A DNA stretch of 64,000 bases, taken from assembly GCA_018433675.1 (NCBI GenBank), contig JAHDQS010000001.1:42232-106231 (forward strand). Direction: 5' to 3'. This document shows, one piece after another, positions 567-20,933 of the stretch. The first letter of the stretch is position 1. Each line of letters starts with the position of its first letter. The stretch comes from Clostridia bacterium. GTDB lineage: Bacteria; Bacillota; Peptococcia; DRI-13; SM3-B62. Below the pieces are notes generated by a model. That model did not search any database, was not told the origin of the DNA, and worked only from the letters and a program-made list of their open reading frames with translations. The position numbers were made by a program, and so were the translations under genes.

Positions 567-2494
567 TCGGCAAAATACCCTCTGATCTCATTGGCACCCA
601 TATTATCTATCATCTCTACCATGCCCGGAAACAGCGGAGGATAAATTTCATATAGGTAATGATACATCTTGGCCACTAGATATTCGCTATCAGGCCCCTC
701 GCCCCAAACCTTTTGCAGTTGGTCTGTGGCCAGATAAACTGCCGATAGGTATTCCTGTGTATGTTTAATGAAGCCGGATAAATCCATTTCACCTGTCGAA
801 GAATTGATCTCATACATGGCACAAGCCGCTTTTAAGGCCTTCTTTTGCCACTCTCGAACGGACTCAAAAATTTTGTACGCCCCGGTATAGTCACCACCGT
901 TTTCCCGTATATATTCATCAATTCCATACTTTAAATAATTTATTCTCCCCTCAATGAAAACACGCAAGGTCTCGCAAATACCCACAAGGTTTTTTCCGTC
1001 GATCCGTTTGATATTCTTTTTTAAAGCTAATTCCTGCGGTTTGCCTGCCAAAATCTTGCACAATACTTCACAAAGCAAAAACCCTAACAAGCAAGGTCTT
1101 TTTTGCCTACCCTCGGTAGGACGCCACCCCCAATTGCAGGCCCTTTTCATCAATCTCAAATACAATACGACCTGGGCATCCAAACTTTCTCCACGAATGT
1201 CATATTCCCTTTCTCCCAGTCCTCCTATGTCCACGGGAACATTCGTGGAAACAGCGAAATTGTCAAGCAAGGCATCAAATATCCCGCATAGGTATTTGCC
1301 GTTTTCCCAGAAAATATGAGGATACTTGTATATTCCCGTTTTCTCTGTGTCATAGGGCCCTACGCCGGTAACCCCCAAGGGGGGATAATGTCCGTCGGTT
1401 CTGAGAATCAACCGTATTTCAGGGGCCCATGTTATTTTATCAAATTCCACGGTAGGCAAATTCCCCAAACCTTTTTCACACAGAATATCGATATAGGCAT
1501 CGGGAGATAGGAAATGGACCCGGAACTCACCCTTCTCCTTTTCCAGGATATCCTGCCAGGCTTTTTCCATAATCTCCAGGGCAATATCACCAAAATCCAT
1601 CAACTCTAAATCTTGCACATACAGCAAAAGTCCCCCCTCGGGTGCTTTTCTTAGTTCCTCCATAAGAACAGCCCGGTAAATTGCAACCCCCTCTTCCATA
1701 CTAATGGGATACTTTTCCCTTTCGCTGCTCAAATACTCATTGTCAAAAACCGCAAAATCACCCAGCATATAACCCTGGGCTTTGACGTCCTCCCTGCGCA
1801 TCTTAGTGATGGGACGCCATATTTCCTGGGAGACCGGAAAATTCCGAGGCAAGGCCAGAATCCTCTTATCGGGGGTCTCTAGCCAAAATGCCCCATACTC
1901 ACAGTCACCTTCCCCTTTAATCTCATAGGCAACCTTCCCTTCCCCTAAATGAGGGAAAATGACATATTCAATGTTGGCATCCTCAATAGCAGATAGTTTG
2001 TCGCTACAAAGTGAATCTTCGGTGGGAAACAGGCCGTTATATTTGGGGTATGGGGCTTGCAGCACGTTGTGCAAGTAGCTCCTGTTCCAGGCTATTTCCT
2101 GGGAAATCTCCCGAGGCTGAAGAAGCGAGACATGGGTATGGTGCGCGTGTCCATAGAGAGGATACAACCTTCCCCGGGCGTAATCCTTCTTCATGCGTTC
2201 AAAGGCTTCCGGAAGTATGGATTTTATCTGGACCAACAGTTCATTGCTGTATTCCACGCTCAGCGGAGCATCAAGCTTATCGCCGAATTCACTGCAAAGG
2301 GAATAAATGTCCCGGCCTTCCTCCTTCCTCTTTTTAAGATAATTCTCCGTCAGCAGTCCTTCCCTCATCGGATTCTTTTCATCCAGGTATGAAAGAAGCC
2401 TCTCCGGCAAATCCCACAGCATTTCGTGGGCATGAAACGCTAAAATCACATAAACATCCTTCAATCCAAGGTACCCCTTCCCATATTTATTCAC
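563..2494 (-). CDS. Putative alpha-glucan-processing glycoside hydrolase (GH57-like suspected), 643 aa
   Basis: Long uninterrupted ORF with a 4-nt overlap with the upstream GH13 gene, sitting between alpha-glucan enzymes. The N-terminal VILAFHAHEMLWD motif resembles GH57-type N-termini. The family call is from recollection only. Confidence 0.4.
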   Translation of the reverse strand: MNKYGKGYLGLKDVYVILAFHAHEMLWDLPERLLSYLDEKNPMREGLLTENYLKKRKEEGRDIYSLCSEFGDKLDAPLSVEYSNELLVQIKSILPEAFERMKKDYARGRLYPLYGHAHHTHVSLLQPREISQEIAWNRSYLHNVLQAPYPKYNGLFPTEDSLCSDKLSAIEDANIEYVIFPHLGEGKVAYEIKGEGDCEYGAFWLETPDKRILALPRNFPVSQEIWRPITKMRREDVKAQGYMLGDFAVFDNEYLSSEREKYPISMEEGVAIYRAVLMEELRKAPEGGLLLYVQDLELMDFGDIALEIMEKAWQDILEKEKGEFRVHFLSPDAYIDILCEKGLGNLPTVEFDKITWAPEIRLILRTDGHYPPLGVTGVGPYDTEKTGIYKYPHIFWENGKYLCGIFDALLDNFAVSTNVPVDIGGLGEREYDIRGESLDAQVVLYLRLMKRACNWGWRPTEGRQKRPCLLGFLLCEVLCKILAGKPQELALKKNIKRIDGKNLVGICETLRVFIEGRINYLKYGIDEYIRENGGDYTGAYKIFESVREWQKKALKAACAMYEINSSTGEMDLSGFIKHTQEYLSAVYLATDQLQKVWGEGPDSEYLVAKMYHYLYEIYPPLFPGMVEMIDNMGANEIRGYFAD

Positions 2495-4740
2495 TCTCCC
2501 ACCGTTTGTGGTTCAAACCGGTAAATGAACGCACCGTAAGGCGGAAGAACGAATTCTTCCGGCTGCTCTTCTTGAATTTCCGTTTCAAGATACTGCTTTT
2601 CGTCATTTACAGAGACAGCAGGCAGGTCATAGATTTTTTCAATATCAGCCAGTTTGACCAACCTCTCTTGACTGATAAATTCAGTATTAAGCGGAACATC
2701 GTGTCCTTCAAAATTCAGCAGCACCATTATTCCATCCTGAGCATCCCCGCTTTTCTTGACCCGCCAGCCAACAACTTTTTGTCCCCCACCTTTATCGTCT
2801 TCCAGCCATGGTGCCGCCACCCAGGAAAACAGCCCCTCATCAATTGGATTGTAACCGCTTATCCTCAACTCTTCATATTGTTTTCTCAAATTAATCAAAC
2901 CGCATGTCCATTGATAAAACCGGTCTGTTCCCTCCGCAGCTGTATTCCAGGGAACCTTGATCCTATTCCTCTCTCTTTCAATGCCAAACTCCTGTCCCAT
3001 ATAGATCATGGGTTGTCCCAGTGCCACCATCGTGGAGAATAATCCCAAGCGGGCTTTTCTCTCCTTTATTTCCGGTGTCTGTAAATGGGCACCGCCGGTA
3101 GCTACCTCAAATTGGACGCTGTTCTCGTCGTGGCTTTCGCAATAGTTAATCACGTTATTGGTATGGGCGGCAAAGCTGTCTTTCCCAAAATAGAACATGG
3201 AGCCTAACTGTTTGGTATCATTGGGCATGTTCTCAAACTCTCCCTCCCGCAGCAGGGCTTTGACCTTATCATGGAACACATTGCACCACTGGGCGTAGCC
3301 GTTATATCCATCGAGGTTGATATCCTTTTCATTGGGCAGATTCTCAGCTATTAAGATCGTGTCGGATTTAAACCCTTTATCCTTGATTTCGTGGGCAATC
3401 CTCAACAGTAATTTATGATTCAAGAAATAACTGTGGGTTGCATCAAATCTGAAGCCATCGATATGGTATTCCTTGATAAACAGCTTGCAAGAATCGATAA
3501 GCATATTGTCAACTTCGTCCTTGCCTGTGGCCACCTTATTGCCCCACATAGTCTCCCCGGCAAAGTAGAACCCTCCGGTCCCTGAACCGTCATCAATCAA
3601 ATTCCAAAGGGGATTATATTCGTTTGAAGTATGATTAAAAACCTGATCAATAATTACCGCGAGCCGGTGTTTATGGGCTTCGTTAACCATCTGTCGAAAA
3701 TCATCGGGTGTTCCAAAATCCTTTTCCACTGCCATAAAGGTACAAGGTTCATACCCCAACCCACGTTTCACGGGCACTTCTGCCGTAGGCATCAAAGCCA
3801 GTACGTTTACGCCCAGTCTTTCAAAATACCCTTCTTGTATCCTCTTGGTAACGCCTTTAAACGTTCCCTGGATTTCATCGGGAATGTCCGCATCATTATC
3901 GGTAAACCCGTAGATGTTCAACTCATAGAGTATTAAATCCTTAATGTCGGGCGTTTTCCAATCTTGATCGGTCCAAGAAAATTCTCTTGGGTTTACCACT
4001 ACCGCATTCCGATATTTGTAATCCTCGCTGAAAACCCTGGTATAAGGGTCAACCACATATTTGTCCATCTCGGTCGATCCGCCCTGCAGATAGAACTTAT
4101 ATTCTATTACCATGTCCTTGTCAAGGGGTTCAATCCGTGCCAGCCAAATATTAGGCTGGTAATAATAGCCTCGATATAAGTCCATTTCGATAAAGCTCTT
4201 TTTCCTGGGCTTGGCATGTCCCGGACACTGCCAATCATTAATGGTTCCTGTTAAAAAGACCCGGGCAGCCCGGGGATGGAAAAACCCGAACAGGATAGAA
4301 CCGTCAGTGAGGAGATTGGCACCCAGCAGAGAAGGTATGCCCAATCCGGAAACATCCGTATCGGGAATATAGTGGTTCTCAGTAGGAAGCAGGTGCCGGA
4401 TTTTTTCATAGTATTCCTTTAAATCGCCCACCGGCTCGGCGGGACGAACATGATAAATGTTATGCCTGTCGGCCCTTACCCAGATCTCGTCTCCCATCTC
4501 CCGGTGAAAGACCCTGTTGACATCAGCAGGCTCCCAGCGAACATCCTGCCCTTTCCCATCCTTGAATAACAGATTGAAACTGCTGCGGTTATACTTCATG
4601 TCATAAAACACACCGAAATCATCCTGTCCGCTGACGGAGACCTCCCTTTCCAAAGTAGCTCCGTCGCTGACCCAAACCCACATGACAGGCTCCAGAAAAC
4701 CGTTGCCGTTATCGTAATGAACTCTGATACTGTGCGTCAT
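2491..4740 (-). CDS. GH13 alpha-amylase-family enzyme with an N-terminal CBM48-like domain (pullulanase / debranching / branching type), 749 aa
   Basis: All four GH13 conserved regions are readable: DQVFNH (I), GFRFDATH (II), LIAENL (III) and YCESHDE (IV). Confidence 0.8.
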   Translation of the reverse strand: MTHSIRVHYDNGNGFLEPVMWVWVSDGATLEREVSVSGQDDFGVFYDMKYNRSSFNLLFKDGKGQDVRWEPADVNRVFHREMGDEIWVRADRHNIYHVRPAEPVGDLKEYYEKIRHLLPTENHYIPDTDVSGLGIPSLLGANLLTDGSILFGFFHPRAARVFLTGTINDWQCPGHAKPRKKSFIEMDLYRGYYYQPNIWLARIEPLDKDMVIEYKFYLQGGSTEMDKYVVDPYTRVFSEDYKYRNAVVVNPREFSWTDQDWKTPDIKDLILYELNIYGFTDNDADIPDEIQGTFKGVTKRIQEGYFERLGVNVLALMPTAEVPVKRGLGYEPCTFMAVEKDFGTPDDFRQMVNEAHKHRLAVIIDQVFNHTSNEYNPLWNLIDDGSGTGGFYFAGETMWGNKVATGKDEVDNMLIDSCKLFIKEYHIDGFRFDATHSYFLNHKLLLRIAHEIKDKGFKSDTILIAENLPNEKDINLDGYNGYAQWCNVFHDKVKALLREGEFENMPNDTKQLGSMFYFGKDSFAAHTNNVINYCESHDENSVQFEVATGGAHLQTPEIKERKARLGLFSTMVALGQPMIYMGQEFGIERERNRIKVPWNTAAEGTDRFYQWTCGLINLRKQYEELRISGYNPIDEGLFSWVAAPWLEDDKGGGQKVVGWRVKKSGDAQDGIMVLLNFEGHDVPLNTEFISQERLVKLADIEKIYDLPAVSVNDEKQYLETEIQEEQPEEFVLPPYGAFIYRFEPQTVGE

Positions 4741-4841
4741 TTCATCTACCCCCGTATGTGCGCAGAAAATTAGTTATTAACCCTATTTTTTGCTGCATTG
4801 GCTTTTTTATTCGTGCCAACCAAATGCTTTCATCACCACAT

Positions 4842-4865
4842 AAAGAAAACTTGGCTTGCGCCAAG
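4842..4865 (-). terminator. Candidate intrinsic terminator
   Basis: Minus-strand RNA reads CUUGGC-GCAA-GCCAAG (6-bp stem, GNRA loop) followed by UUUUCUUU. It lies downstream of the res cassette and upstream of the GH13 start. Confidence 0.5.
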
Positions 4866-4916
4866 CCTTAAGGCGCAGGCGGAAGCCTTAGTTGCACTTA
4901 TACTTTCTGAAAGTAC

Positions 4917-4941
4917 AAAAAAGCCCGGGAAAATTCCCCGG
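4917..4941 (-). terminator. Candidate intrinsic terminator downstream of res
   Basis: Minus-strand RNA reads CCGGG-GAAUUUU-CCCGG followed by GCUUUUUU. The GC stem is short (5 bp). Confidence 0.45.
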
Positions 4942-5116
4942 TTTGAACTGAATTATGAATACTAATTGACAAATGTTATCATATAAATCCAACATATCCC
5001 GTTTTGAAAGCGGAGCTTATAACCCTTCACTGGATTTTGTCACTAAAATCGTCCGTAGCCTTGGCAAGGAAATCCATATTACAATTAACTGAATCGGGCA
5101 GTAGACAAACACGGTT

Positions 5117-8100
5117 TCAACACATTACCTTATCCAATAACGCCGCATAGCCGTCCACCACGTCATACACAACCGAATCTGTACTGATGGCTTTAAAATG
5201 TTCGCGGGCACAATGGACTTTTGCTTCTTCGACCATACGCAGTTGCATAGTGGACATGGAGCCTTTTGTCTCTGCAACAAAGTAGATATGCTTCACTTTA
5301 CCCTCATGAAAGGCTATCGCCCAATCCGGGTTATATTTCCCTACCGGAGTACTGATAAAAAAACCGCTTGGCAGCTTCACATATACCGCAACTTCGTTGC
5401 TGGTATCAACGCTTTCCGCAAAGGTTCTCTCCTTTGCGGAGTCATAGATGATGTGGTCATAGAGATGCTTTTTTGCCGCCATTGCGTTTACTCCAAGCTC
5501 TCCTTTTAGTGTCGGCTCAGTGAAAATAATAGTGTCATATACTGCATCCAGCTTATTATAAGTAATATGCTGGATTATTGTCGTCGCTTTTTGCTCGTTT
5601 ATAATCTGTGCTGCTTTGATTATAAATTCCTCAGGATTCGTAGCAAATTGATGGAATACTGTCTTTTCGATACCACGCAGGATACTCACAACCGCTTTTC
5701 GGGTAAGCCCGGTTTCGGTGACTGCTTTATCGATAAGATCATATTTTACTGCGCTATTTGCGGAGACTTTAGCTTTGTAAACCTCATTTTCCTCCCTCAC
5801 AAAGGCAGTTCCCTCCCGCAGTTGTTCACGTGATTGAATGTCTGTCATCGTGCCGGTTTCAACCTTGAAAAATATTTTGGAAACACGAAGCTCACGATTC
5901 AGTGCCGCTATCGCTTTCCGAATTAATTCGTTCTGATCAAACTCCACCACATATGCAGATTTGACGTTAATATTTGCCCATAATTTTTGGAATTCAGGCA
6001 AGCCCAGTTTGGATTTGTCGATCTTTAATTCAACATTGTTTTTCCGCGCATTCTCAGGCTGCATAGCTCGACTGTCATAAATAGAATCGAGAATCGCTAT
6101 TATGGAATCTTTGCAATCCACAGCTTCTTCCGCGATTTCTATCTTACCATTTGTTTTATCCTCATAATATTTATCTGTAAGGATTCCTTTCTTTACATAT
6201 CCGCAAGTAATAAGCCCCTCGTAAATACTCTGCGCAAGATCGATATCTACGACCTGCTCAACTCCATTAATATCTTTAATGACCTTGTTCTTGAATAAAT
6301 CTACCGTCACCATACGAGGCCGGTCGGCTACTGCCTCAGCAAGCTCGCTCTGGAGACCCTTGGCAAAGCTGTCATAACTTTCATTGGCAACAACAGTTAG
6401 GACATTCACGTTATGAACATCCTGGCCCAGCAAGTTCGAATCCATGCGTTCTCCGCTTTGGTTTACAGATAACCGCAATCCACGCCCGACTTCCTGACGT
6501 CTGCGAACATCACTGCCACTCTGCTTAAGGGTACATATCTGAAACACGTTGGGATTATCCCAGCCTTCGCGCAGAGCAGAGTGAGAGAAAACAAACCTCA
6601 CCGGCTCACGCCGATCCAACAGGCGCTCTTTGTTTTTCATTATCAGATCGTAAGCGTTCACATCGTCGGAGGTGCGCTCCCGTCTATCGCCTAATTTGCT
6701 ATCTATCATACGCTGGCTTTTTTTATCTATGGAAAAATAGCCTGTATGTGTTTCCTCCTGTCTTATTCTGTCAAGATATTTCAGATATCCATCGCTATCG
6801 CCGATTGCAAGCTGAAGATTGCCAATAACTTGCTTGTATTCTTCCTCGAACATATCTGCATACAAGCCGTTAAAAGCTTGCCCGGTGTCATCATATTGCC
6901 TGTATTTTGCGACCTCGTCAATAAAAAATAATGATAGTACCTTAATGCCTTTATAGAACAACTGCCGTTCCCGCTCAAGGTGAGAGAGGATGGTCTCGCG
7001 CATTTGGATGCGCCTAAGTTGATCCTCGCTGACCGCCCCGATTACTTCACCTGCAAAAACCTTGATGCCGTTAGTGAACTCGATGGAACTGTCTCTTCCG
7101 TCAATCTTCAACACGGTATAACCGTTTTTATATTCTGCCAGTTCACCGGAATTGGGGAACAAGTTATATCCCTCTCCAACTATCCGTGTTGCTTTGCGGA
7201 CACCGTTCGCTCCCTTCACGTCAAACTCGATGGTGGCAGTAGGATTGCCCTTGGAGAGATTGATTCCTTCAAGGTACACATATCCTTCGGTTGCTGTAGT
7301 ACCCGTAACGGAAATTCCTTTAACGGCAATCTTTTTGACCAGCTTTTTGTTATATGCCTCCATCGCGTCAAGGCGGTAAACCATATTGTATACGCTGTCT
7401 TTCTTGTGTGTCGCGGAATAGCGCAAAGTGAATAACGGATTAAACTCTTTTAAGCGCTCCTTGGTGGCAGCACCTTCTACCGACTGAGGCTCATCAATAA
7501 TCAAAATGGGATTCGTTTTCGCCAGAATATCTATAGGCTTGCGGCTTCTGAATTCATCCAGCTTCATGTAAATGCGGCGGGCATCCTTGCCACGGGCGTT
7601 AAATGCCTGCGAATTGATAATCATTACATTGATGGAACTATCGGAAGCAAAGCGATCTATCTCAGTCAGCTGCGCCGAATTATAGATGAAATAGCGGATT
7701 TTCTTTCCATATTCCTCTGCAAAATGTTCCTCTGTAATCTGAAACGACTTATACACGCCCTCGCGTATGGCGACACTAGGCACAACGACAATGAACTTGC
7801 TCCAGCCATACCGCTTGTTGAGTTCATACATGGTCTTGATATATGTATATGTTTTCCCAACACCGGTTTCCATTTCCACAGTCAGATTATACCGACCCTC
7901 CATTTGCTTGGAAGGCTCAATTTGATTGCTGCGCTGGATTTTGTTGATGTTTTCAAGAATAACTCCATCGTTCAATTCCGGCACAATCCTGAAATTACCA
8001 AAACCAGTAAAGCGCTCCGCTTCATCAAGTGTCATCTGTTCGTTTCTTATATAGCCCTTGTCCATCATATAGCTGGGCGTAAGATAAGGCTGTCCGGCAA

Positions 8101-8164
8101 AAACATCGCATACGGCTTTTGCCGCATCCGCCTGGAATTTTTGGTGCTTGAACTGCAGCTTCAT
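5117..8164 (-). CDS. Type III restriction Res-like helicase-nuclease (SF2 helicase plus C-terminal PD-(D/E)xK-like nuclease), 1015 aa
   Basis: Readable motifs: METGVGKTYTY (motif I), IIDEPQ (motif II), REGWDNPNVF..QEVGRGLRL (helicase C / motif VI) and a C-terminal YNPDW..FVAETKG nuclease-like motif. Its ATG overlaps the rhuM stop (ATGA at 8161-8164). Confidence 0.85.
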   Translation of the reverse strand: MKLQFKHQKFQADAAKAVCDVFAGQPYLTPSYMMDKGYIRNEQMTLDEAERFTGFGNFRIVPELNDGVILENINKIQRSNQIEPSKQMEGRYNLTVEMETGVGKTYTYIKTMYELNKRYGWSKFIVVVPSVAIREGVYKSFQITEEHFAEEYGKKIRYFIYNSAQLTEIDRFASDSSINVMIINSQAFNARGKDARRIYMKLDEFRSRKPIDILAKTNPILIIDEPQSVEGAATKERLKEFNPLFTLRYSATHKKDSVYNMVYRLDAMEAYNKKLVKKIAVKGISVTGTTATEGYVYLEGINLSKGNPTATIEFDVKGANGVRKATRIVGEGYNLFPNSGELAEYKNGYTVLKIDGRDSSIEFTNGIKVFAGEVIGAVSEDQLRRIQMRETILSHLERERQLFYKGIKVLSLFFIDEVAKYRQYDDTGQAFNGLYADMFEEEYKQVIGNLQLAIGDSDGYLKYLDRIRQEETHTGYFSIDKKSQRMIDSKLGDRRERTSDDVNAYDLIMKNKERLLDRREPVRFVFSHSALREGWDNPNVFQICTLKQSGSDVRRRQEVGRGLRLSVNQSGERMDSNLLGQDVHNVNVLTVVANESYDSFAKGLQSELAEAVADRPRMVTVDLFKNKVIKDINGVEQVVDIDLAQSIYEGLITCGYVKKGILTDKYYEDKTNGKIEIAEEAVDCKDSIIAILDSIYDSRAMQPENARKNNVELKIDKSKLGLPEFQKLWANINVKSAYVVEFDQNELIRKAIAALNRELRVSKIFFKVETGTMTDIQSREQLREGTAFVREENEVYKAKVSANSAVKYDLIDKAVTETGLTRKAVVSILRGIEKTVFHQFATNPEEFIIKAAQIINEQKATTIIQHITYNKLDAVYDTIIFTEPTLKGELGVNAMAAKKHLYDHIIYDSAKERTFAESVDTSNEVAVYVKLPSGFFISTPVGKYNPDWAIAFHEGKVKHIYFVAETKGSMSTMQLRMVEEAKVHCAREHFKAISTDSVVYDVVDGYAALLDKVMC

Positions 8165-9216
8165 TTATCATCACCTGTCTTCTTGGCTTGCTCTTCGAGC
8201 TCTGTTAAATATTTGTCGTAATCGGACATAAAGAGCCTGTCCTGAACAATACGGTACTTCTCAAATTCGCTTTCAGCATGAGATTTGGCAATCTCTGCGG
8301 TAATTTGCCCCGTTTTCTTCAGAATTGCATGGTCATCAGCTTGTAAGAATATATCGAGTCGCTTTGCCCAATCTTCCATTGTCATCGGGATACGCCGTCT
8401 GGCTCTGTTCTCCGCAAGGTCAAGATACGCTGATACAATCAGTTGAAGGGAGCGCATCTCATCTTCGGAAAGATAGTTTTTAGCTATTGAAACATCGCTC
8501 CTGATGATTTTACCGTCCGGTGCATCTTTCCAAGTAGTAAGCCCCATATAAGGCTTTTTAGCATCGGCACGTTTGTATATTACTTCTGCCGCTGTATTGC
8601 CATGAACAGCAAAGTGCATCTTATTTTGTACTTTTGCAAAAAATTCTTTTGTCGTCTTGGCTGATTTATCATAATCGAGGGCAGTAGCGTAAATATCGGT
8701 AATTTTTTGATAGAATTTCCGTTCGCTAAGACGTATCTCACGAATTTTTTCAAGCTGTTCCTCAAAATATTTGTCAGTGAGGATACTGCCACCATTTTTA
8801 AGACGTTCGGAATCCATAACCCAGCCTTTTATCGTATATTGCTCTACGATCTGGTTTGCCCAAACACGAAAGCGAACAGCCCGTTGATTGTTGACCTTAA
8901 ACCCAACGGCAATAATCATTTGCAGATTATAATGGTTTGTATCATACTGCTTACCATCAGCAGCAGTTATTAAGTATTTCTTAATAACTGCATCCGGCTC
9001 CAATTCACCGTCATCAAAAACCTTTTTGATATGCTGGTTGATAGCGGAAACAGACACATCGTACAACGTAGCCATCATCTTTTGCGTCAGCCAGATATTT
9101 TCTTCCTCATACCGCATTTCAAAGCTATCCTGACTGTCGCCTGTTGATGCTACAAAAGTCAGGTATTCGGCGGCGGAACTTCTGATTGTTATTTCGTTTT
9201 TCCTTTTCTTTGCCAT
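8161..9216 (-). CDS. RhuM-family protein, 351 aa
   Basis: The translation (IRSSAAEYLTF..ENIWLTQKMMATLYDVSVSAINQHIKKVF..NLQMIIAVGFKVNNQRAVRFRVWANQ) matches the RhuM family as I recall it. An AAGGGGG RBS precedes the ATG. Confidence 0.8.
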   Translation of the reverse strand: MAKKRKNEITIRSSAAEYLTFVASTGDSQDSFEMRYEEENIWLTQKMMATLYDVSVSAINQHIKKVFDDGELEPDAVIKKYLITAADGKQYDTNHYNLQMIIAVGFKVNNQRAVRFRVWANQIVEQYTIKGWVMDSERLKNGGSILTDKYFEEQLEKIREIRLSERKFYQKITDIYATALDYDKSAKTTKEFFAKVQNKMHFAVHGNTAAEVIYKRADAKKPYMGLTTWKDAPDGKIIRSDVSIAKNYLSEDEMRSLQLIVSAYLDLAENRARRRIPMTMEDWAKRLDIFLQADDHAILKKTGQITAEIAKSHAESEFEKYRIVQDRLFMSDYDKYLTELEEQAKKTGDDK

Positions 9217-9282
9217 ATCGCCTAACCCCCTTTACAGCACTTTCGCGCTCGTATTCAGTGCAAACAGCTTAAACCCCATCCT

Positions 9283-10896
9283 TCAATAAGGCGCATACTT
9301 TCCCATGACCTTTTCTGCCGCTTTAAGTCCGTCAACCGCAGAAGACATAATGCCACCGGCATAGCCTGCCCCTTCTCCCACAGGATATATCCCCTGTATG
9401 TTGGTTAAACCTTGTTCGTCCCTGTTTATCCTCACCGGAGAAGAACTCCTGGTCTCAACACCTGTCAGGACAGCATCCGGGGCGGCAAAGCCCTTTATTT
9501 TAGCATCAAAATGCCTTAAGGCTTCTTTGATTGTCGCGACAGCATAATCAGGCAGACATTCCTTCAGCGGAGCAAAGGTAACCCCGGGCTTATAGGTAGG
9601 TATAACACTGCCCCATTGGGTACTAGGTCTGTCTCTGAGAAAATCCTCAACCAATTGAACCGGGGCCTGATAATCTTCTCCCCCTATCTCATAAGCCAAC
9701 CGCTCCCACTTTCTCTGGAATTCGATGCCTGCCAAAGGATGCCGGCTGGGATAATCGGCAGGTGTAACCCCCACTAACAAGGCCGCATTGGCATTCCTGC
9801 CATCCCTCCTATATTCACTCATCCCATTTGTGACAACACATCTTTCTTCCGAGGTAGCACCAACGACATAACCGCCGGGACACATACAAAAGGTATAAGC
9901 TGATCTGCCCTTTTTCGCATGATAAGCAAGCTTATAATCAGCCGCTCCCAACCCGGGTTCTCCGGCAGCAATTCCGTACTGCCCCTTATCAATAGTTTCC
10001 TGTAAATGCTCAATCCTAACTCCAATGGAGAAGGCTTTCTGACTCATAACAACGCCTCTGTTGTACAGCACCTCAAAAGTATCCCGGGCGCTGTGCCCGA
10101 TTGCCAACAGTACGACTCTACAAGGTAGCCTCTCTTTATCATTGATTACTACAGCTTCAATCCTGTCATCCTTGATGATAAAATCGGTTGCTTTGGCTTG
10201 AAACCTAACCTCGCCCCCGCAAGCGATGATTTCTTCCCTGATATTCTTAACCGCAGACCTGAGCAAATCCGTACCGATATGGGCTTTGCTCCTATATAAT
10301 ATTTCCGGAGGTGCCCCGGCCTTGATAAACTCTTTTAATATCATGCGGCACCTTCCGTCGTTTATCCCGGTGGTAAGCTTTCCATCGGAAAACGTACCTG
10401 CACCACCCTCGCCAAATTGCACATTGCTGTCGGTATCAAGCAGACCGTTTTCCCAGAACTTACTTATTCTAACTGTTCTATCCTCCACCGCTTCTCCTCT
10501 TTCCAGGAGGATAGGTCTGTAGCCATTCTTAGCCAGCATCAATCCGGCAAAAAGACCTGCCGGTCCCGTACCTATCACCACAGGTCTTTCAGGCATTTCT
10601 TCAGTTCCCGGTTGAATACGGTACTCAGACATAACCGGGGTTTGCGTTATACTGCTTTTTGAACGGTCCTTATCAAGAATTACTTTTTCATTTCCAACAC
10701 TGACATCTACCGTATAGACAAAGGAAATATTTCCTTTTTTTCTGGCGTCAATTGACTTTTTAAATATTTCAAATCCCAGCAGTTCCTGCTTATTAATCCT
10801 AAGCTTACTGAGGATAGCTTTTTTTAAGGCTTGCCTTTCCATCTCAGTATTTGCGGCTTCTTTTACCCTTATTTTAATATCTGTAAGCCTAACCAT
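9283..10896 (-). CDS. FAD-dependent protein (COG2509-type uncharacterised dehydrogenase), 537 aa
   Basis: Dinucleotide-binding motif VVIGTGPAGLFAG and a C-terminal YPVGEGAGYAGGIMSSAVDG motif. It is a paralogue of the gene at 58068-59474. Confidence 0.7.
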   Translation of the reverse strand: MVRLTDIKIRVKEAANTEMERQALKKAILSKLRINKQELLGFEIFKKSIDARKKGNISFVYTVDVSVGNEKVILDKDRSKSSITQTPVMSEYRIQPGTEEMPERPVVIGTGPAGLFAGLMLAKNGYRPILLERGEAVEDRTVRISKFWENGLLDTDSNVQFGEGGAGTFSDGKLTTGINDGRCRMILKEFIKAGAPPEILYRSKAHIGTDLLRSAVKNIREEIIACGGEVRFQAKATDFIIKDDRIEAVVINDKERLPCRVVLLAIGHSARDTFEVLYNRGVVMSQKAFSIGVRIEHLQETIDKGQYGIAAGEPGLGAADYKLAYHAKKGRSAYTFCMCPGGYVVGATSEERCVVTNGMSEYRRDGRNANAALLVGVTPADYPSRHPLAGIEFQRKWERLAYEIGGEDYQAPVQLVEDFLRDRPSTQWGSVIPTYKPGVTFAPLKECLPDYAVATIKEALRHFDAKIKGFAAPDAVLTGVETRSSSPVRINRDEQGLTNIQGIYPVGEGAGYAGGIMSSAVDGLKAAEKVMGKYAPY

Positions 10897-10962: not shown

Positions 10963-12207
10963 TCAATATCCGTTTAGAGCCGCACTCCGCCCCGCAACAA
11001 ATCCGGATGACCATGCCCACTGAAGATTAAAGCCTCCGCACTGACCGTCGATATCTAATATCTCCCCGGCATAGAACAAGCCTTTGACTAACATGGATTC
11101 CATTGTCTGGGGATTGATTTCCTTTGTATCGACACCACCTGCGGTAACTTGTGCACCGGACCACCCTTTGGTCCTTTTTATTTTAAACCGCCAATCAGTC
11201 AGGATATCTCTAATACCATCCTTCTCTTGGGCGGTCAAATCGGCGACGGAACGTTTTAGATCACTGATACCCGCTTCTTGTAACACCACAGGAATCAATC
11301 TTTTATTGATAAGGCCGACTAAGCTGAAGTCAATTGGTTTTCCGGGAGCCATTTGGAACCGTTTATTAAGAAGCTTTTCCAACTCTTCTTTAGTCATCAT
11401 ATCCATGATGATGATTTTCAGATAAGCTTCTTCCCCCGCCTTGATCAACTCTCCGGCTTTCCTGCTTATTTGCAGAATAGGCGGGCCTGATATTCCGTAA
11501 TCCGCAAAAAGGATATCTCCCCTGTCTTGAACAATAGCCTTATTTTTGTGTATAACTTCAGCAGTACCCACAAATTTTACTCCGGAGATACGTTTAAAAA
11601 AAGAGCCCTCCAGCATCAATTGCACCAGGGCAGGAAAAACCTCTACAATACTATGTCCCAGTTTTTCGGCCAAATCATAGCCGCATCCGTCAGAACCGCT
11701 GGCAGGCATAGCTTTGCCGCCTGTCGTCAGAATAACCCTGTCCCCCCGGTATGAGTTCCCCTTTTCCAATACAAATATAAATTCATCTTTCTCCCTGATA
11801 ATATCCTTTACACAGGCATCACAAACGATATTTACTCCCAGGTCATTTAATTCATATAAAAGGACATCCAGAATACTTGAAGCCTGATCTGACATCGGGA
11901 AGACCTTGCCCAGTTCCTCCACCTTATGTGCAATCCCTAATTTCTCAAAAAATCTGATAGTATCATCAACAGTAAAATCTCCCAGCACAATGTGGGCAAA
12001 TCCCGGATCACTGCCATGATAGTAAGTAATATCCGTCTTGATATTCGTAAAGTTGCACCGTCCGTTTCCCGTAGCCAATATTTTTTTGCCAACTCGCGGA
12101 TTTCTCTCAAGTATCGTTACGTCGGCACCCATTCTGCGTGCAGAAATAGCGGCAATCATCCCGGCTGCTCCTCCGCCTACCACTACGACACGTCTTTTTA
12201 TTTTCAT
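10963..12207 (-). CDS. HI0933/BaiN-family NAD(P)/FAD-dependent flavoprotein
   Basis: VVVVGGGAAGMIAA Rossmann motif and a C-terminal LFYAGEILDIDGQCGGFNLQWAWSSG motif typical of the HI0933 family. I chose the start at MKIKRR (12207) because a GGGGG RBS precedes it; the ORF track extends to 12225. Confidence 0.8.
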   Translation of the reverse strand: MKIKRRVVVVGGGAAGMIAAISARRMGADVTILERNPRVGKKILATGNGRCNFTNIKTDITYYHGSDPGFAHIVLGDFTVDDTIRFFEKLGIAHKVEELGKVFPMSDQASSILDVLLYELNDLGVNIVCDACVKDIIREKDEFIFVLEKGNSYRGDRVILTTGGKAMPASGSDGCGYDLAEKLGHSIVEVFPALVQLMLEGSFFKRISGVKFVGTAEVIHKNKAIVQDRGDILFADYGISGPPILQISRKAGELIKAGEEAYLKIIIMDMMTKEELEKLLNKRFQMAPGKPIDFSLVGLINKRLIPVVLQEAGISDLKRSVADLTAQEKDGIRDILTDWRFKIKRTKGWSGAQVTAGGVDTKEINPQTMESMLVKGLFYAGEILDIDGQCGGFNLQWAWSSGFVAGRSAALNGY

Positions 12208-13409: not shown

Positions 13410-13496
13410 GATAGCTTACCCCCTTTGATGTAAATTATACTGTTACCTGTTCTTCTTGTCCATTTCCCATTTTTCCTGATTGCTTCTTTTCTCCAT

Positions 13497-13536
13497 AAGA
13501 TAACTGAAGGGAACTTTCGCTCCCTTCAGTTATCTT
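13497..13536 (-). terminator. Hairpin H1 (16-bp perfect arms) overlapping the abiEii stop codon; member of the island hairpin family
   Basis: AAGATAACTGAAGGGA-ACTTTCGC-TCCCTTCAGTTATCTT. The core GAAGGGAACTTTCGCTCCCTTC (13506-13527) is 20/22 identical to the core of the hairpin at 20307-20328. Confidence 0.6.
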
Positions 13537-14437
13537 ATGTCCTAAAACAATCAGATATAATTACTTTTTGTATGCCCGTTATTGCTTCATCATATTTAAC
13601 ATTGACGAATAATAACTTTTCAGTAAGATCCGAATAATCTTGTTCGTAATAGCCTGAGGAAATAATATCTTCCAAGAGTTGATTAATATCAAATATGTCG
13701 AGGGCTGACGAACATATTTTTTGGCTTTTCCTTAATTCGCGTACTTTTACAATAAGTTTCTTAAGCTCATCATCTATGGGAACCACTGACAGAAGCATGT
13801 ATATATCATAAATGTGTCTGGAGTGCTTGGGTTTTTTGTTATTTAAATAATAGTCGCAAAGAGCAAATACTTTGTCAATAAGAGTTCTGCGCAAATCTTG
13901 CACACACATTTCAAACGGTGTTAACTGGTATCTTTCGGCAATATCTTCTCTTCTGATCTTTTTAAGAAACTGGTAAATATAATTGTCCACAAGCCTATTC
14001 TCTGTAGGCAAGTATTCTACCCCTGTATACGTTTCGATAATTATTTCTGGACTAATCCCCTCTTCATAAAGGGGCTCATACTCCACAACATAGCGATTAT
14101 AATCAAGCCCGCTACGGATTTCATCGGCGTTTTTTATCGCCAATCCCAATCCTTCTACTGCAACAAAAACAGCCTTCTTCAGTTTGCTTTTCTGTCCTTG
14201 GGTTACCTTGCCACGAACGGAAATGTCAATATCCTCGGAAAAACGTTTAATAACATGAAAACATTTAGAGAGTGAAGTTCCGCCTCTAAATATCAAATTC
14301 TCATGAGCTTTATTCAATTCATGCAAAGCAGCCGAAACATAGCAGTCTTTTTCAATAATTTCCGGAGGGATGCTGTATTCTTCACTTGTAGCAACAATTA
14401 AATCTCGGAAATCTTCTGGGTTTTTATACAAATACAT
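13535..14437 (-). CDS. AbiEii/AbiGii-family nucleotidyltransferase toxin (type IV TA / abortive infection)
   Basis: EKDCYVS..LIFRGGTSLSKCF..RFSEDIDI motifs characteristic of the AbiEii (DUF1814) family. There is a 14-nt overlap with the upstream antitoxin gene, and the region is visibly AT-rich. Confidence 0.85.
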   Translation of the reverse strand: MYLYKNPEDFRDLIVATSEEYSIPPEIIEKDCYVSAALHELNKAHENLIFRGGTSLSKCFHVIKRFSEDIDISVRGKVTQGQKSKLKKAVFVAVEGLGLAIKNADEIRSGLDYNRYVVEYEPLYEEGISPEIIIETYTGVEYLPTENRLVDNYIYQFLKKIRREDIAERYQLTPFEMCVQDLRRTLIDKVFALCDYYLNNKKPKHSRHIYDIYMLLSVVPIDDELKKLIVKVRELRKSQKICSSALDIFDINQLLEDIISSGYYEQDYSDLTEKLLFVNVKYDEAITGIQKVIISDCFRT

Positions 14438-15059
14438 TCAATAACCCGCTTTCAACTATTTTCTTTGAAACCTTAGACGGATAGAAACGCAAGTAATCAA
14501 GCACCGCAAGTTTATGGAGATCGCTTGAAATTATATAATTTTTTATGATGTCGTATGTTTTGTCTGTATCATACTCCGACCATTTTTCGCATTCATTTAT
14601 TGCGTCCAACAATTGGAGGATTTTATAATTTCCTTTTTTGACTGTGGCTCGTGAACATCTTAAACGAATTGTATTGTTTTTAACCTTAACGTTTCTACCT
14701 CTACTGGCCTCTCTATTCGTAGCAATTTCCTTGACAGATGGGACCTGTGTAGTAAGGCCAATTTGATTCGCAAAAGTCAGTCCCGTGTAATAACCGTACA
14801 CATCATTGTCATCCCTTATATATTTTTTAACGATTACTTTGTTTGCATCAAGAAACGCTTTGCCTAATAAAGAAGATTTTTTGGGTATATAATAAACCCC
14901 TGCATCAAAGCGACTCAGTTTTCCGTCATCCACTAAACGTTTTAATAATTGGCGAAGATAATTGTACTTCAAATTATTAAAGTTGAGTTCTTCTAGTAAT
15001 ATGGGTTCATTTGGTTTATATTTATTTTGCAATGCCGCGTATACCATTTTTTTGTTCAC
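14424..15059 (-). CDS. AbiEi-family antitoxin / transcriptional autoregulator
   Basis: N-terminal winged-helix-like LRQLLKRLVDDGKLSRFDAGVYYIPKK, positioned directly upstream of and overlapping abiEii. The start is either GTG at 15059 or the ATG 21 nt downstream. Confidence 0.75.
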   Translation of the reverse strand: MNKKMVYAALQNKYKPNEPILLEELNFNNLKYNYLRQLLKRLVDDGKLSRFDAGVYYIPKKSSLLGKAFLDANKVIVKKYIRDDNDVYGYYTGLTFANQIGLTTQVPSVKEIATNREASRGRNVKVKNNTIRLRCSRATVKKGNYKILQLLDAINECEKWSEYDTDKTYDIIKNYIISSDLHKLAVLDYLRFYPSKVSKKIVESGLLNVFV

Positions 15060-15071
15060 TTCCCTTCGCTC

Positions 15072-15118
15072 CTATTGTAACTAATTCATACTTGTTTTGT
15101 CAACATATGTTACAATAG
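15072..15118 (-). promoter_or_regulatory. Candidate abiE promoter flanked by a 10-bp perfect inverted repeat (putative AbiEi operator)
   Basis: The minus strand reads TTGACA (15098-15103), an 18-nt spacer, then TACAAT (15074-15079). The inverted repeat CTATTGTAAC (15072-15081) / GTTACAATAG (15109-15118) brackets the -35 and covers the -10. Confidence 0.6.
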
Positions 15119-15148
15119 TATACGCTTAATATCCGTTTTTATTCGCTG

Positions 15149-16057
15149 TTATTCCTCCCTAGTTAACCCGGCCAAAAGATTAATCCCGACCTCCGAGGCT
15201 TTTGCGTAGACCGGTTCGAGGGTTTTTAATATATTTTCTTCCCCGCGCCAGAAAGGAAAGTCGCCCAGTTGTTTTAATAGTGTCGCCCGTGAAGATGATG
15301 GCTTTGTCTCTATCAGAAAATCTGCAGGCAGCGGTCCTCCTTCCCAAAAATCCTTAGGATCGCTTGAAATTCCGCCTGCTTGAATATCCTCATACCCGCT
15401 GTCAAATGTTTGTGTTTCTGAATCCCCCCTCTTTTTAGCGGGAACCGCTTCCTCTCCACCGGATAATTTCTTTATCATTTCCGCACGTTCCATCCCGCGC
15501 AGCTTAAAAATCAGAAAGGGGTCGCGGTCAAACTCCTCACCTATGATATAGTACACTGCGGCAATATGTTTGCAAGGATTAGACCAGTCCGGGCAGGAAC
15601 AATCGGTTTCAATGTCGTCAATTCGGTTGGGGAAAAGCGAAACCCCCGCCCCGGAAAAAACCTCTTCAATGTCAAGCGGCATCTCCCCGGCTAGTAACCG
15701 CGCAGCAAAAATAGCTTCCTGAGACAGCTTTGCCATTACCTTGTCCCATTCAGCGGCAGACAACACCCTGACCTTGATGTCAACTTTATAAGGTTTAATC
15801 CGGGAACCTTGGACCTTGGCCTTTACACTTCCACCCTTTATATCCACGGACAGAACCTGCCCGCTTCTGGCATAGGAGCGCCCTCTGGTGAGCCTGGCCC
15901 CTAGGTTAAACCCTTCCAGCGTTTGGTTCCAGCGTTTTGCCCACCAGTTTTTGCCGAAAGTTCTTCCCTTACCTTTGGCTTTAATCCCGTTTTTCGCCTC
16001 ACGGGGCTTGGACGGGGTATATTTCCTGTAGTAATCAAAATCATCCCATTGCCCCAT
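15149..16057 (-). CDS. SWIM zinc-finger protein (COG4279-like), 302 aa
   Basis: CSCPDWSNPCKH is a SWIM CxC..CxH signature. The start lies 2 nt after the SNF2 stop. Confidence 0.85.
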   Translation of the reverse strand: MGQWDDFDYYRKYTPSKPREAKNGIKAKGKGRTFGKNWWAKRWNQTLEGFNLGARLTRGRSYARSGQVLSVDIKGGSVKAKVQGSRIKPYKVDIKVRVLSAAEWDKVMAKLSQEAIFAARLLAGEMPLDIEEVFSGAGVSLFPNRIDDIETDCSCPDWSNPCKHIAAVYYIIGEEFDRDPFLIFKLRGMERAEMIKKLSGGEEAVPAKKRGDSETQTFDSGYEDIQAGGISSDPKDFWEGGPLPADFLIETKPSSSRATLLKQLGDFPFWRGEENILKTLEPVYAKASEVGINLLAGLTREE

Positions 16058-16059
16058 TC

Positions 16060-19000
16060 TTAATCACCTACCATTTCCCGGCGCAAGGCCCAAATTTCCC
16101 GAAGCTCGGTAGTCGAAAGCTCGGTCAACCAGCTGTCCCCGCTGCCCACTATTTTGTCCGCTACGTCCTTCTTTTTCTCGATCATCTCGTCAATTCGTTC
16201 TTCCACCGTACCGGCCACTACGAATTTATGAACCTGTACATTTTTTGTCTGCCCGATTCGGAAGGCTCGATCCGTGGCTTGGTCTTCCACCGCCGGATTC
16301 CACCAGCGATCAAAATGGAAAACATGATTAGCCTGGGTTAGGTTGAGCCCGGTTCCTCCGGCTTTCAGTGAAAGAATAAAAAAAGGCGGACCGGCTTCAT
16401 CCTGAAACAGTTCAACCATTTGGTTTCTCTCTTTAGAAGAAACGCCTCCGTGCAGAAAAAGAACCTGGCAGCCAAATGTTTCTGCGAAATGACGATGCAG
16501 GATATCGCCCATTTCAGTAAACTGAGTAAAGATCAAAGCCCGTTCGCCCATCTCCAGTATTTCTTCGCACATTTCCGTCAGACGCTGCATTTTCCCGGAC
16601 CGTCCCGCCATAGTGGATTTATCCTTCAGGAACTGGGCCGGATGATTACAAACCTGTTTTAACCTGGATAAGGCTGAAAGAATCAAGCCCTTGCGCTCAA
16701 TACCCTCCGCTCCCTCCAGTCCTGCTTCTACTTCTTTGACAACAGCGGCATAAAGGGAGGCCTGTTCTCTGGTCAGAGTACAAAACACCTTCATTTCCAT
16801 CTTATCCGGGAGATCGTCGATAATTGACTTGTCCGTTTTCATCCTTCTTAAGACAAATGCTCCGGTAATCTTTTTTAATCTTTGAGCCGCATCATTATTG
16901 CCGCTAACCTGAATCGGAATCAAAAACTCTCTTCTGAAGTCTGTTTGCCCCCCCAGTAAACCGGGATTCATAAACTGCATCAGGGACCACAAATCACCAA
17001 CATTATTCTCCACCGGGGTTCCTGTCAACGCCAGCCTATATCCGGCTTGAATATTACAGGCAGCCTGAGCCTGCTTGGTGCCGGCGTTTTTAATATTCTG
17101 GGCCTCATCCAGGATGATTCCTGACCACTGTATCCCTCGGAAGAGCTCCTGATCACGGTACAATAATCCATAACTGGTCAAAACCACCGCATTTTCTTCC
17201 GTTTTCTTTTGAAATTCCTCTATGTCTTTAATCCGTTCGGCTCCGTGATGCACCCAGAGGGAAAGTTCCGGCGTGAACCGGGCCGCTTCCTTCTGCCAGT
17301 TTCCTACCAATGAAGTGGGACACACTAAAAGCGCCGGGCGTTTTTCGCCCCTTTCCCTATTGTGCTGCAGTAAGGCTAAAGTCTGAATCGTCTTACCCAA
17401 ACCCATATCGTCCGCCAGACAAGCACCAAAACCCCATTGACACAAGAAATGTAACCAAGAATAGCCTCGCAACTGGTAGTCCCGCATCTGTCCCTTAAAC
17501 CCTCCGGGTTGCGCTATCTCCTGCCAAGGGCTATGACCTTCCATCTTCTCAAGAAGATCTTTTACCCAGCCTTCGGCCTGTAACCCTGCAAAAGCCAGTC
17601 CGCCCGGCGCGCGAACCGCTCCCAACGCCAGGCGCACAGCCTCACCGATAGTAAGGAGTTTCTCGCCTTTTTGCCTTTCGGCTAAGAATCCCTTGATGCT
17701 CGCTGCTTCGAATGCCACCCAACGGCCACGCAATTTGACCAGCCCTGACTTCATTTTGGTCAACAGTTCCAGTTCCTGTTCAGTCAGCGTCTCATCGCCC
17801 AAAGCCATCTCCCAGTTAAAGCTAATGACCCGATCGGCTGTAAGTCCTGCCGATATTTGCATTTTGGACGGATTTAAACGCACCTTGGCACTGAGTCCCT
17901 TTTGAGCTTTTTTCTTGGTCCACCAGCCCGGTACCTGTATAATAAATCCGCTCTGTTCCAAGAGTGGTGCTTTCTCTGTCAAGAATTCGTAGGCTCCGGC
18001 ATTATCCAACAAGTATCCTTGAGGAACCGGGGTCCGAAGGCTTTCTTGTATATGGGAACACAGCCCGGCAACCTGTCCTAAGGCCGTTAGCACAAGTTCT
18101 CGCACTGAAACATTCCTGTCCTTAAAAATTTTAGCTTTTTTGCCACGTGCCCGCCAGGCTTCCTCTACAGGAATCTGCAGGCTGGGATCATCAACAGCTT
18201 GCAGCAAATAGCATAGGGACCAATCGTCGGATGTAGTTGGTTCTTCCAGACGAAAACAAAACCTGAAAGGGGCATTCGACAGGTAATAGACCTTGCGCTG
18301 CCAATCCTTAACCTGCGCAACAAACTCGGTCAGCTTGTCCTCTTTGTCATGCAGCAGCCCTGTAGCATCCCGGAGGGCTGCAAGCCACCTGTCATGCAGA
18401 CTTTGATGACTTGCCGGTTCAGCATACGTTTCGCCCCTGTCCAAGTCTGCCCGCACAACTGCGTTCACGAAACCACCGACAGCCTCCGTCACAACCGACA
18501 GAGGACCGGTTGCCGGCTCTATCCCCTTTTCCGCTGTAGCCCGGCATACCGCAGGCATTATTTCACTTAACACCCTAAGCCTGTCCAAATCATGGCCGGT
18601 AAAAACCGGGTCCCAGCAAGCATAATACTTTTTAGCTGTCATGGATATCCCCGGTATAAATCTTTCCCGCGCCACCAAACTTCCGGCCAGGCGCAATACC
18701 TGAGTCCAAAAGGCCACATCCCGGCTCACCACCACGCCGGGCGCTACAACCCGTCGTCCCATACAAACCGTCAATAAAGAAACGGCTTGTCTTGCATTAA
18801 GATTTAAGGTTGTTACCTTCCAGGGCTGTAATTTTATTTCTTCCTGAGATTCTAATTGCTCCGATACTAGCCTTCTTGAGGCAAGCGGCCTTCCGGAAAT
18901 AGTGGGAAGCCATATTTCCATTTTGTGGGTCTTTGTCTCGGCAATTTCTTCTTCAATGCCATCCACCGCCAGGGCATTTTTTAACAACTTAGCGGATACG

Positions 19001-19146
19001 TCAAAGGGAAAGGGAAAGGGTTCAGTCTCCCCCTCCTTCTTTTTTCGTTTGCGCCCCCGCCCGGTCGACATTCCTTCATCGGGAAGCATTTCCCCCCAAA
19101 TAAACCAATTTCCGCTATAATAGCTTAAATGTAAAATAATAATCAT
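16060..19146 (-). CDS. SNF2-family helicase with a long bacterial SNF2-associated N-terminal region, 1028 aa
   Basis: [10 protein letters not shown] (motif I), [10 protein letters not shown] (motif II), LTGTPVEN (motif III), and helicase-C [28 protein letters not shown]. Confidence 0.9.
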   Translation of the reverse strand: [1028 protein letters not shown]

Positions 19147-19332: not shown

Positions 19333-19725
19333 CTATATCGAGCCTGTCTTATCCCTGGCTATTGCAAGCAATTCTTCAGCTATTGTACTCGCACGTAATA
19401 CCTCTTCCTTATTTATCTCATTCGGAATATCAGGAGGATATCTTGTTTCAATATAATAATCGTCTATTGTCATGCAATCGTCTTGATATTCTTCGAATAA
19501 TCGGTCGTGTTTTATACATAAACCGAGCAAATTTCCGATTGAATGGCCTTTTACTATATTCCCTGTCTTGTGCAACAAATACGCCTTCAACACTTTCTCA
19601 ATTGCTTGTTGAAGCAAAAACGCTGCAACATTGACCGGCCCCTCATTATTTAGAACTATTTCAGCCGCAATGTAATCCTGCTTCGCTTTTTCGATCCAAT
19701 CGAGACTATTTGTACTATCTACCAT
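19333..19725 (-). CDS. HEPN-domain protein (toxin of an MNT-HEPN pair)
   Basis: AIEKVLKAYLL..GHSI and ETRYP (Rx4-6H-type region) typical of HEPN. I chose the start at MVDSTN (19725), which overlaps the MNT stop by 11 nt; the track ORF extends to 19791. Confidence 0.8.
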   Translation of the reverse strand: MVDSTNSLDWIEKAKQDYIAAEIVLNNEGPVNVAAFLLQQAIEKVLKAYLLHKTGNIVKGHSIGNLLGLCIKHDRLFEEYQDDCMTIDDYYIETRYPPDIPNEINKEEVLRASTIAEELLAIARDKTGSI

Positions 19726-20044
19726 GTAATACCACACCTTCTTTAGCAATAATACTGGCCATCGTTCCAGCCTTTTTTGAAATCCGCTCAAACTGCTGAG
19801 GTGTGTATAATATAATATCTACCGGTTTATCAAGGTAATTAAGACCATCCGTTTTATAAATATAACCCCGTATGTTCCTTCTCAATAATCTAACATTTCC
19901 TTCTTCAATGTCTGCAATAATACAAATATCAATATCACTATCTTCTGTTGCATCTTCTCGCGCATGCGAACCGAATAGTATTATTTTTTGCGGACTAAAT
20001 TTATCAATTATACCGTTGGTTAGTTTTTTAATATCATTTTTCAT
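19715..20044 (-). CDS. Minimal nucleotidyltransferase (MNT) antitoxin
   Basis: ILFGSHAREDATEDSDIDICII is the GS..D.D nucleotidyltransferase signature. I chose the start at MKNDIKK (20044) because a GGTTTGGAG RBS precedes it. Confidence 0.85.
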   Translation of the reverse strand: MKNDIKKLTNGIIDKFSPQKIILFGSHAREDATEDSDIDICIIADIEEGNVRLLRRNIRGYIYKTDGLNYLDKPVDIILYTPQQFERISKKAGTMASIIAKEGVVLHGR

Positions 20045-20916: not shown

Positions 20917-20933
20917 AACTCTTCCCCCCCTTC

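Follow-up and report, generated by a model that had tools for sequence, protein, structure and literature searches.

A coupled rhuM-res gene pair without mod in a Clostridia bacterium, a probable remnant of a multi-gene Type III restriction-modification operon

In a stretch of 64,000 nucleotides from a Clostridia bacterium (contig JAHDQS010000001.1, positions 42,232 to 106,231; hereafter the window), a gene for a RhuM-family protein (rhuM) overlaps the gene for the restriction subunit of a Type III restriction-modification (R-M) system (res), and the gene for the methyltransferase subunit (mod) is missing. Our analyses show that this pair represents the 3' part of a mod-rhuM-res operon, left without mod in cis and deprived of its native upstream region. 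We consider it very probable that the segment carrying the pair (5109-9292) is the truncated 3' end of a larger, multi-gene Type III R-M operon and an ordinary remnant of a defence system. The ancestral gene order would have been HTH_26, HKD-SNF2, DUF4391, Mod, RhuM and Res, of which only 13 codons of mod, rhuM and res would survive. The fragment would have lodged in a variable, defence-prone spot between a gene for a flavin adenine dinucleotide (FAD)-dependent protein and a GH13 gene.

The trace of mod lies immediately upstream of rhuM, where its last 13 codons and its stop codon are preserved (Table 1). The encoded peptide (FKLFALNTSAKVL, then a stop) is identical at 11 of 13 positions to the C-terminus of Mod from the closest relative, locus L001 (IFKLFAPNTSVKVL, then a stop; residues 633-645), and in about 60 loci this C-terminus shows strong conservation (...EKINVEEIFKLLAPNTSVKVL, then a stop). 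The remnant is in register with the mod stop codon, its spacing to the rhuM start is the native distance, and it is the sole six-frame site in the window with at least 7 of 13 matches to the Mod C-terminus. Homology to the intact locus L081 (blastn) extends from the res stop to 9273, around 40 nt past the rhuM start. Searches of the window by tblastn found the rest of mod, DUF4391, the SNF2 gene of the operon and the HTH gene all absent, and the 18 nt between the remnant and the upstream junction (9274-9291) bear no clear likeness to mod. The original prediction, made from the DNA letters without database searches, had stated that no Mod-type open reading frame (ORF) exists in or beside the cassette. 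This holds for the whole 64 kb, except for the 13-codon remnant that it had overlooked: the methyltransferase motif IV, [DNS]PP[YFW], was found in no ORF of at least 100 amino acids in the window, and tblastn with two Type III Mod proteins gave no window match besides the remnant. A Mod encoded together with res, as in a complete Type III R-M system, is accordingly lacking in the window, as are an SNF2 gene matching the PADLOC model C3a139 ('HKD+Snf2') and a DUF4391 gene, the marks of the parent operon. The SNF2 gene that the window does contain (16060-19146) was considered as a displaced copy of the operon helicase and rejected; the two share only generic motif similarity (26% identity over 173 amino acids), and this gene and its SWIM partner belong to a backbone conserved in the sister genome L087, hence not to the operon.

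The form of the intact operon can be read from the relatives of Res. We examined a wide sample of 80 loci, with one genome per species and Res relatives 46-89% identical, as well as a close clade of eight distinct loci with upstream DNA, in which Res is 87-91% identical to the window protein. In the wide sample, 58 loci had 2.5 kb or more of sequence upstream of res, and 54 of these carry a Type III mod there on the same strand; mod directly adjoins res in 28 of them, and in 18 an insert of 0.7-1.4 kb lies between the two genes. Seven of the eight close loci carry mod (L001, L037, L081, L082/083, L085, L096/097 and L098/099), the eighth (L034) being mod-less and decayed. The Mod proteins of the relatives contain PF01555 and match the PADLOC MTase_III model (E = 6e-244). 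The seven mod-bearing loci share the order HTH_26, SNF2, DUF4391, sometimes extra genes, then Mod, a rider gene and Res, with the exceptions that the L037 sequence ends short of HTH_26 and SNF2 and that HTH_26 is uncalled in L098/099 and uncheckable in L001; L085, L096/097 and L098/099 have shortened or split SNF2 and DUF4391 genes. The SNF2 protein of the parent operon (about 1074-1080 amino acids) matches the PADLOC model C3a139, and in L081 and L082 the stretch with the HTH_26, SNF2 and DUF4391 genes is at positions 2495-6673 and 611-4773, respectively. SNF2 and DUF4391 genes are found upstream of mod in L081-L085, L096 and L098. Upstream DNA of 7 kb or more was available for 44 of the wider loci, of which 29 have SNF2 and 27 have DUF4391. 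PADLOC has no model for DUF4391 and literature searches on DUF4391 and SNF2 gave nothing relevant; the extended Type III operon with HTH_26, SNF2 and DUF4391 seems to be uncharacterised. The original prediction had itself named a mod upstream in homologous loci, combined with a deletion scar at this locus, as a finding that would contradict it, and this is the pattern presented by seven of the eight close loci and by the 13-codon remnant.

The insertion site was delimited by comparison with a sister genome, reached through the closest homologue of the FAD protein (92% identity). This locus, L087, is collinear with the window on either side of the fragment at 92-96% nucleotide identity (blastn). 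Window positions 13465-9293 correspond to L087 7557-11709 and encode TatA-TatC-TatA, an HI0933-like protein and the FAD protein, and positions 5108-1 correspond to L087 from 11807 on, with the GH13 gene and beyond. The neighbours, originally predicted as an FAD oxidoreductase and a GH13 enzyme, are indeed an FAD-dependent protein (9283-10896) and a GH13/PUD enzyme (2491-4740). In L087 the fragment is absent, and the order at the site is the FAD gene, a terminator-like hairpin, a small HTH_3 gene in the opposite orientation (11823-12107) and GH13. In the window, a fragment of 4.18 kb (5109-9292) takes the place of about 90 bp of backbone, comprising the last six FAD codons and the terminator-like hairpin (L087 11751-11766). 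At its downstream end homology to L087 resumes close behind the res stop (Table 1), the same point at which homology among the Type III loci ends. A further 277 bp of L087 (11931-12207), which hold the 5' part of HTH_3 and the region upstream of it, have no counterpart in the window, and the spot therefore underwent more than one deletion. The two tandem terminators that were originally predicted to follow the cassette do exist as hairpins, but both are kept in L087 (12235-12251 and 12306-12329), a locus without the cassette, and they thus belong to the host backbone. In a locus of a more distant genome, L088, whose FAD protein is 74% identical, a Type I specificity-subunit gene (Methylase_S, 14239-15498) lies downstream of the orthologous FAD gene. 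Because a Methylase_S gene occupies the orthologous site there, the position downstream of the FAD gene may be a recurrent landing site for defence genes.

Comparison with L087 also bears on whether the missing mod could be an artefact of assembly or binning, that is, the product of a chimeric or misjoined contig. Most of the related records are metagenome-assembled genomes, which lends this explanation some substance. However, both junctions lie within long stretches of backbone that are collinear with an independent sister assembly at 92-96% identity, the FAD reading frame stays open across the upstream junction and ends at a new stop, and a misjoin is not expected to yield clean junctions on both sides. 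An artefact is therefore extremely improbable. Two histories would account for a genuine fragment. Either the entire operon was inserted here and a later deletion took its 5' part, or a piece already truncated was captured by illegitimate recombination; the two cannot be told apart.

The Res protein carries a ResIII domain (residues 81-254) and a C-terminal RE_endonuc domain (PF19778, residues 898-1004, E = 5.5e-34), and the PADLOC REase_III model PDLC03647 spans its full length (E = 1e-285). The original prediction of an intact Res-like ORF with motifs I, II and VI and a nuclease motif was fully confirmed: TGVGKT was found at residues 100-105, DEPQ at 224-227, QEVGRGLRL at 557-565, PDW at 946-948 and ETKG at 965-968, all of them invariant or nearly so in 100 homologues. 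The window protein has both the superfamily 2 (SF2) helicase motifs and the PD-(D/E)xK domain that define a Type III Res. A sequence search of the PDB retrieved the Res chain of EcoP15I (4zcf_C) as a homologue (E = 4e-66), and the score against the NCBIfam equivalog PRK15483 was 358 bits, under the cutoff of 564, which places the protein in a distinct Res subfamily. At columns otherwise invariant in 99 homologues, the window Res has five private substitutions (L369V, D373E, I388M, D503N and G812D; median 1, maximum 7), a number that is no clear excess and suggestive at most. None of them falls within the catalytic motifs, and the inactivating substitutions at catalytic residues that the original prediction had listed as a finding against it were not seen on alignment. 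The ratio of nonsynonymous to synonymous substitution rates (dN/dS) for res was 0.036-0.045 between the window and four relatives with intact operons, compared with 0.030-0.055 among those relatives (pairwise); dS exceeds 1 in these comparisons, so that a recent loss of mod would go undetected.

RhuM is likewise a clear member of its family. It matches PF13310 with E = 3e-106 and 354.8 bits (cutoff 33.7) over profile positions 1-248 of 252, and the PADLOC PDC-S05 model PDLC04851 over its full length (E = 2.2e-148). The closest RhuM is that of L001 (P0243; 93-94% identical), and an alignment of 31 sequences revealed a single private substitution, a conservative one. An AlphaFold2 model based on this alignment was of low confidence (mean pLDDT 39) because every available homologue is at least 77% identical, and a PDB sequence search with RhuM matched nothing meaningful. 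To our knowledge, no biochemical function has been established for RhuM. RhuM-like proteins have been described as embedded in R-M loci, at a position otherwise held by DOC/Fic toxins, and have been proposed to act as toxins in multilevel defence (Anantharaman et al. 2013, PMC3710099). Between the core genes of Type I systems, DUF1016, RhuM and Fic genes have likewise been reported (PMC9881135).

In the close clade the rider gene between mod and res encodes 300-350 amino acids and is RhuM in most loci and Bro-N in L098/099 (L098 8099-9004). The overlap of the res start with the rhuM stop, noted in the original prediction, is present in the window as a shared 4-nt ATGA (8164-8161), and Shine-Dalgarno-like sequences, GGTGA and AAGGGGG, lie ahead of the two starts. 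A 4-nt overlap of rider and res was found in every close locus with called genes (L081-L086 and L096-L099). Since this includes loci with the Bro-N rider, the coupling belongs to the mod-rider-res operon in general and does not mark out RhuM and Res as a special pair. Different genes fill the same position in ten other loci, namely a DUF1016/YhcG PDDEXK nuclease in seven (L009, L027-L030, L033 and L074), Bro-N and Fic (L010), DUF2971 (L057) or an unassigned ORF. Rider genes are interchangeable in this gap between Type III mod and res, which is a swap slot for them, and the highly conserved 3' end of mod and 5' end of res may serve as recombination anchors for rider exchange. RhuM itself is found in other settings: in L092-L095 a copy 78% identical is flanked by the hsdM and hsdS genes of a Type I system carried by a mobilisable element, and one 89% identical stands alone among metabolic genes (L090). 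As copies occur both in a Type I operon and alone, RhuM is a promiscuous rider that is not bound to Res. Loci with res genes of about 90% identity differ far more in rhuM (dN about 0.5) than in res (dN about 0.05), a disparity that indicates exchange of rhuM alleles as cassettes among near-identical res genes.

These observations bear directly on the proposal, put forward in the original prediction, that RhuM and Res form a two-gene defence unit sufficient in itself, with RhuM in the place of Mod for targeting or regulation. The ATGA coupling of rider and res is conserved in all close loci, rhuM and res are both intact in the window, and RhuM families are listed by PADLOC as defence candidates (PDC-S05), as such a unit would have it. 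The mod remnant, however, derives the pair from a mod-rhuM-res operon, and the relatives that have the pair and readable upstream DNA all carry Mod, the decayed L034 excepted. The same coupling is found with a Bro-N rider, the rhuM alleles have been swapped among near-identical res genes, RhuM occurs in Type I operons and on its own, the slot holds other genes elsewhere, and the pair has no promoter of its own. Nor does the pair recur on its own: among the loci examined, a RhuM-Res pair without mod was found elsewhere only in L034. We therefore regard a self-sufficient RhuM-Res unit as very unlikely.

If the fragment is a truncated operon, as we favour, its present state can be outlined. No sigma-70-like promoter was found in the 66 bp upstream of rhuM and the FAD terminator has been deleted, and rhuM and res are therefore probably transcribed by read-through from the FAD operon; the translational coupling from RhuM to Res would be kept, and the two would be translated as a coupled pair. 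Type III Res proteins, as known from EcoP1I and EcoP15I, recognise and cut DNA only in complex with Mod. By analogy, the orphan Res should have no restriction activity and do the host no harm, and could for that reason persist intact. RhuM would be autonomous, as a putative toxin or an effector of the abortive-infection type, and may still work alone. The loss of mod was probably recent, given that both retained genes are undamaged. Decay of an R-M system, the other option in the original prediction, is supported for the operon as a whole: the mod scar and the presence of mod in 7 of 8 close and 54 of 58 wider loci point to a former operon, but rhuM and res themselves show no damage.

Mod has also been lost in a few relatives. 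In L034 (5569-9963), residues 1-52 of SNF2 are fused directly to residue 31 of RhuM and mod is gone; residues 24-126 are missing from its res, which also carries a frameshift. The locus shows an independent loss of mod and illustrates the later fate to be expected of such remnants. A second RhuM copy, 40-44% identical, follows in fragments in the same locus. L051 has no mod and its Res is without the first 100 residues. Two further loci, L066 and L068, lack mod as well: in L068 (8110-13105) a truncated SNF2 (residues 1-599) directly abuts res, and in L066 (8618-13102) a Schlafen/AlbA_2-HATPase_c_4 protein is encoded upstream of res. A mod scar like that of the window was sought in both, and nothing convincing was found.

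Several points weigh against reading the fragment as an ordinary remnant. In L066 and L068 the res genes are full length in spite of the absence of mod. There is no positive sign of relaxed selection on either res or rhuM in the window, both being full length with all motifs. The ends of the fragment also hug the pair, with 39 nt of mod kept on the upstream side and no more than 8 nt on the other, which can be read as selection for the pair; to set against this, intact relatives have their module boundaries in the same places. Finally, the analysis covered 64 kb of the genome, from a contig of 271 kb, which leaves room for a compatible Type III Mod encoded elsewhere that assembles with Res in trans, so that Res is still working. 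The intactness of Res and a dN/dS as low as that of relatives in complete operons would agree with this. No such Mod is encoded in the window, however, and since 54 of 58 relatives encode Mod in cis, directly upstream, an arrangement in trans would depart from the usual pattern; moreover, the fragment is a recent arrival absent from L087, so that a matching Mod already in place would be a coincidence. We consider a Mod acting in trans unlikely. There is also a very slim chance that an intact, coupled RhuM-Res pair, read through from the FAD operon, has been retained by selection because it acts without Mod. Res could then act, for example, as a helicase-nuclease effector independent of sequence, with the putative toxin RhuM gating or complementing it, and L066 and L068 would represent further cases of Mod-independent use of Res.

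Table 1. Features of the rhuM-res fragment and its borders (window coordinates).
Feature	Position	Strand	Description
res	5117-8164	minus	1015 amino acids, ATG start; intact Type III restriction subunit with SF2 helicase and C-terminal PD-(D/E)xK nuclease
rhuM	8161-9216	minus	351 amino acids, RhuM family (PF13310; PADLOC PDC-S05); accessory rider gene; stop overlaps res ATG
mod 3' remnant	9232-9273	minus	last 13 codons (FKLFALNTSAKVL) at 9273-9235 and TAA stop at 9234-9232; remainder of mod absent
upstream junction	9274-9292	minus	within the last FAD codons; C-terminus ...GKYAQLFRNT-stop in L087, ...GKYAPY-stop in the window; blastn match ends at 9293
downstream junction	5109-5116	minus	L087 homology resumes at most 8 nt from the res stop
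HTH remnant	4985-5108	plus	3' part of backbone XRE/HTH_3 gene; 5108-4985 equals L087 11807-11930 at 96% identity
two terminator-like hairpins	4941-4925 and 4869-4846	minus	backbone upstream of the GH13 gene; would block read-through from res

The window contains further genes of defence or host interest outside the fragment. An AbiEii toxin gene (PF08843) and a DUF6088 (AbiEi-like) gene form a pair on the minus strand (13535-14437 and 14424-15059), with a G+C content of about 35-38% against 44% for the window; the segment that holds them (13466-15136) is an insertion relative to L087, where the SWIM and TatA genes adjoin. The backbone SNF2/DUF3670 helicase that is paired with SWIM is one ORF of 1028 amino acids in the window (16060-19146) and was called as two genes (754 and 176 amino acids) in L087 (3702-6629), which suggests a frameshift or a sequencing error. 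Between this SNF2 gene and the CotJ operon, a HEPN gene (PF05168) overlaps a minimal nucleotidyltransferase (MNT) gene (PF01909) at 19333-20086 on the minus strand, forming a HEPN-MNT toxin-antitoxin system. L087 carries ParE and AAA_14/DUF4143 genes at this spot instead, which makes it a second variable islet. The CotJA-CotJB-CotJC (Mn catalase) spore-coat operon (20344-21627, minus strand) indicates a spore-forming Firmicute host, and the nearest homologues of the FAD protein are from Syntrophomonadaceae. The proline-rich N-terminal region of CotJA, with its PxPP repeats, gave the sole 'DPPH' match in the methyltransferase motif scan.

The direct significance of the locus is small, in that it is a fragment of an already known kind of defence operon in a variable spot, and listing it as a new methyltransferase-free system would be a mistake. 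The locus is of use as a cautionary case, in which an intact-looking orphan Res beside a defence candidate is explained by a scar of 39 nt and a sister genome. The comparative data additionally show two patterns, a swap slot for riders between mod and res and a Res clade that is usually accompanied by HKD-SNF2 and DUF4391.

The closest known systems include the Type III R-M enzymes EcoP15I and EcoP1I, with which the window Res shares its architecture of SF2 motifs I, II and VI and a C-terminal PD-(D/E)xK nuclease, and the relatives of the window keep the canonical order of mod followed by res. The window differs in that its mod is reduced to 13 codons, leaving the system incomplete, and in the distinct subfamily of its Res, while the operon of the relatives differs by the addition of HTH, HKD-SNF2 and DUF4391 genes and of a rider between mod and res. 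The embedding of rhuM is the same as that reported for RhuM genes in other R-M operons, at a position also used by DOC/Fic-type toxins (PMC3710099, PMC9881135). Those published examples are R-M loci with PrrC-like proteins (PMC3710099) and Type I operons (PMC9881135), whereas the slot in the window lies between Type III mod and res, and its host operon is truncated. RhuM matches PADLOC PDC-S05 over its full length, but this candidate consists of one gene, is defined by its context and has no bearing on a partnership with Res; our literature searches found no experimental report of anti-phage activity for it. Lastly, the fragment resembles other orphan R-M remnants, in which a restriction gene is likewise kept after loss of the methyltransferase, with parallels in L034, L051, L066 and L068. 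An orphan Type III res can be tolerated because Res needs Mod for activity. Compared with other orphan remnants, the res gene of the window stands out in being fully intact and still coupled to an intact rider.

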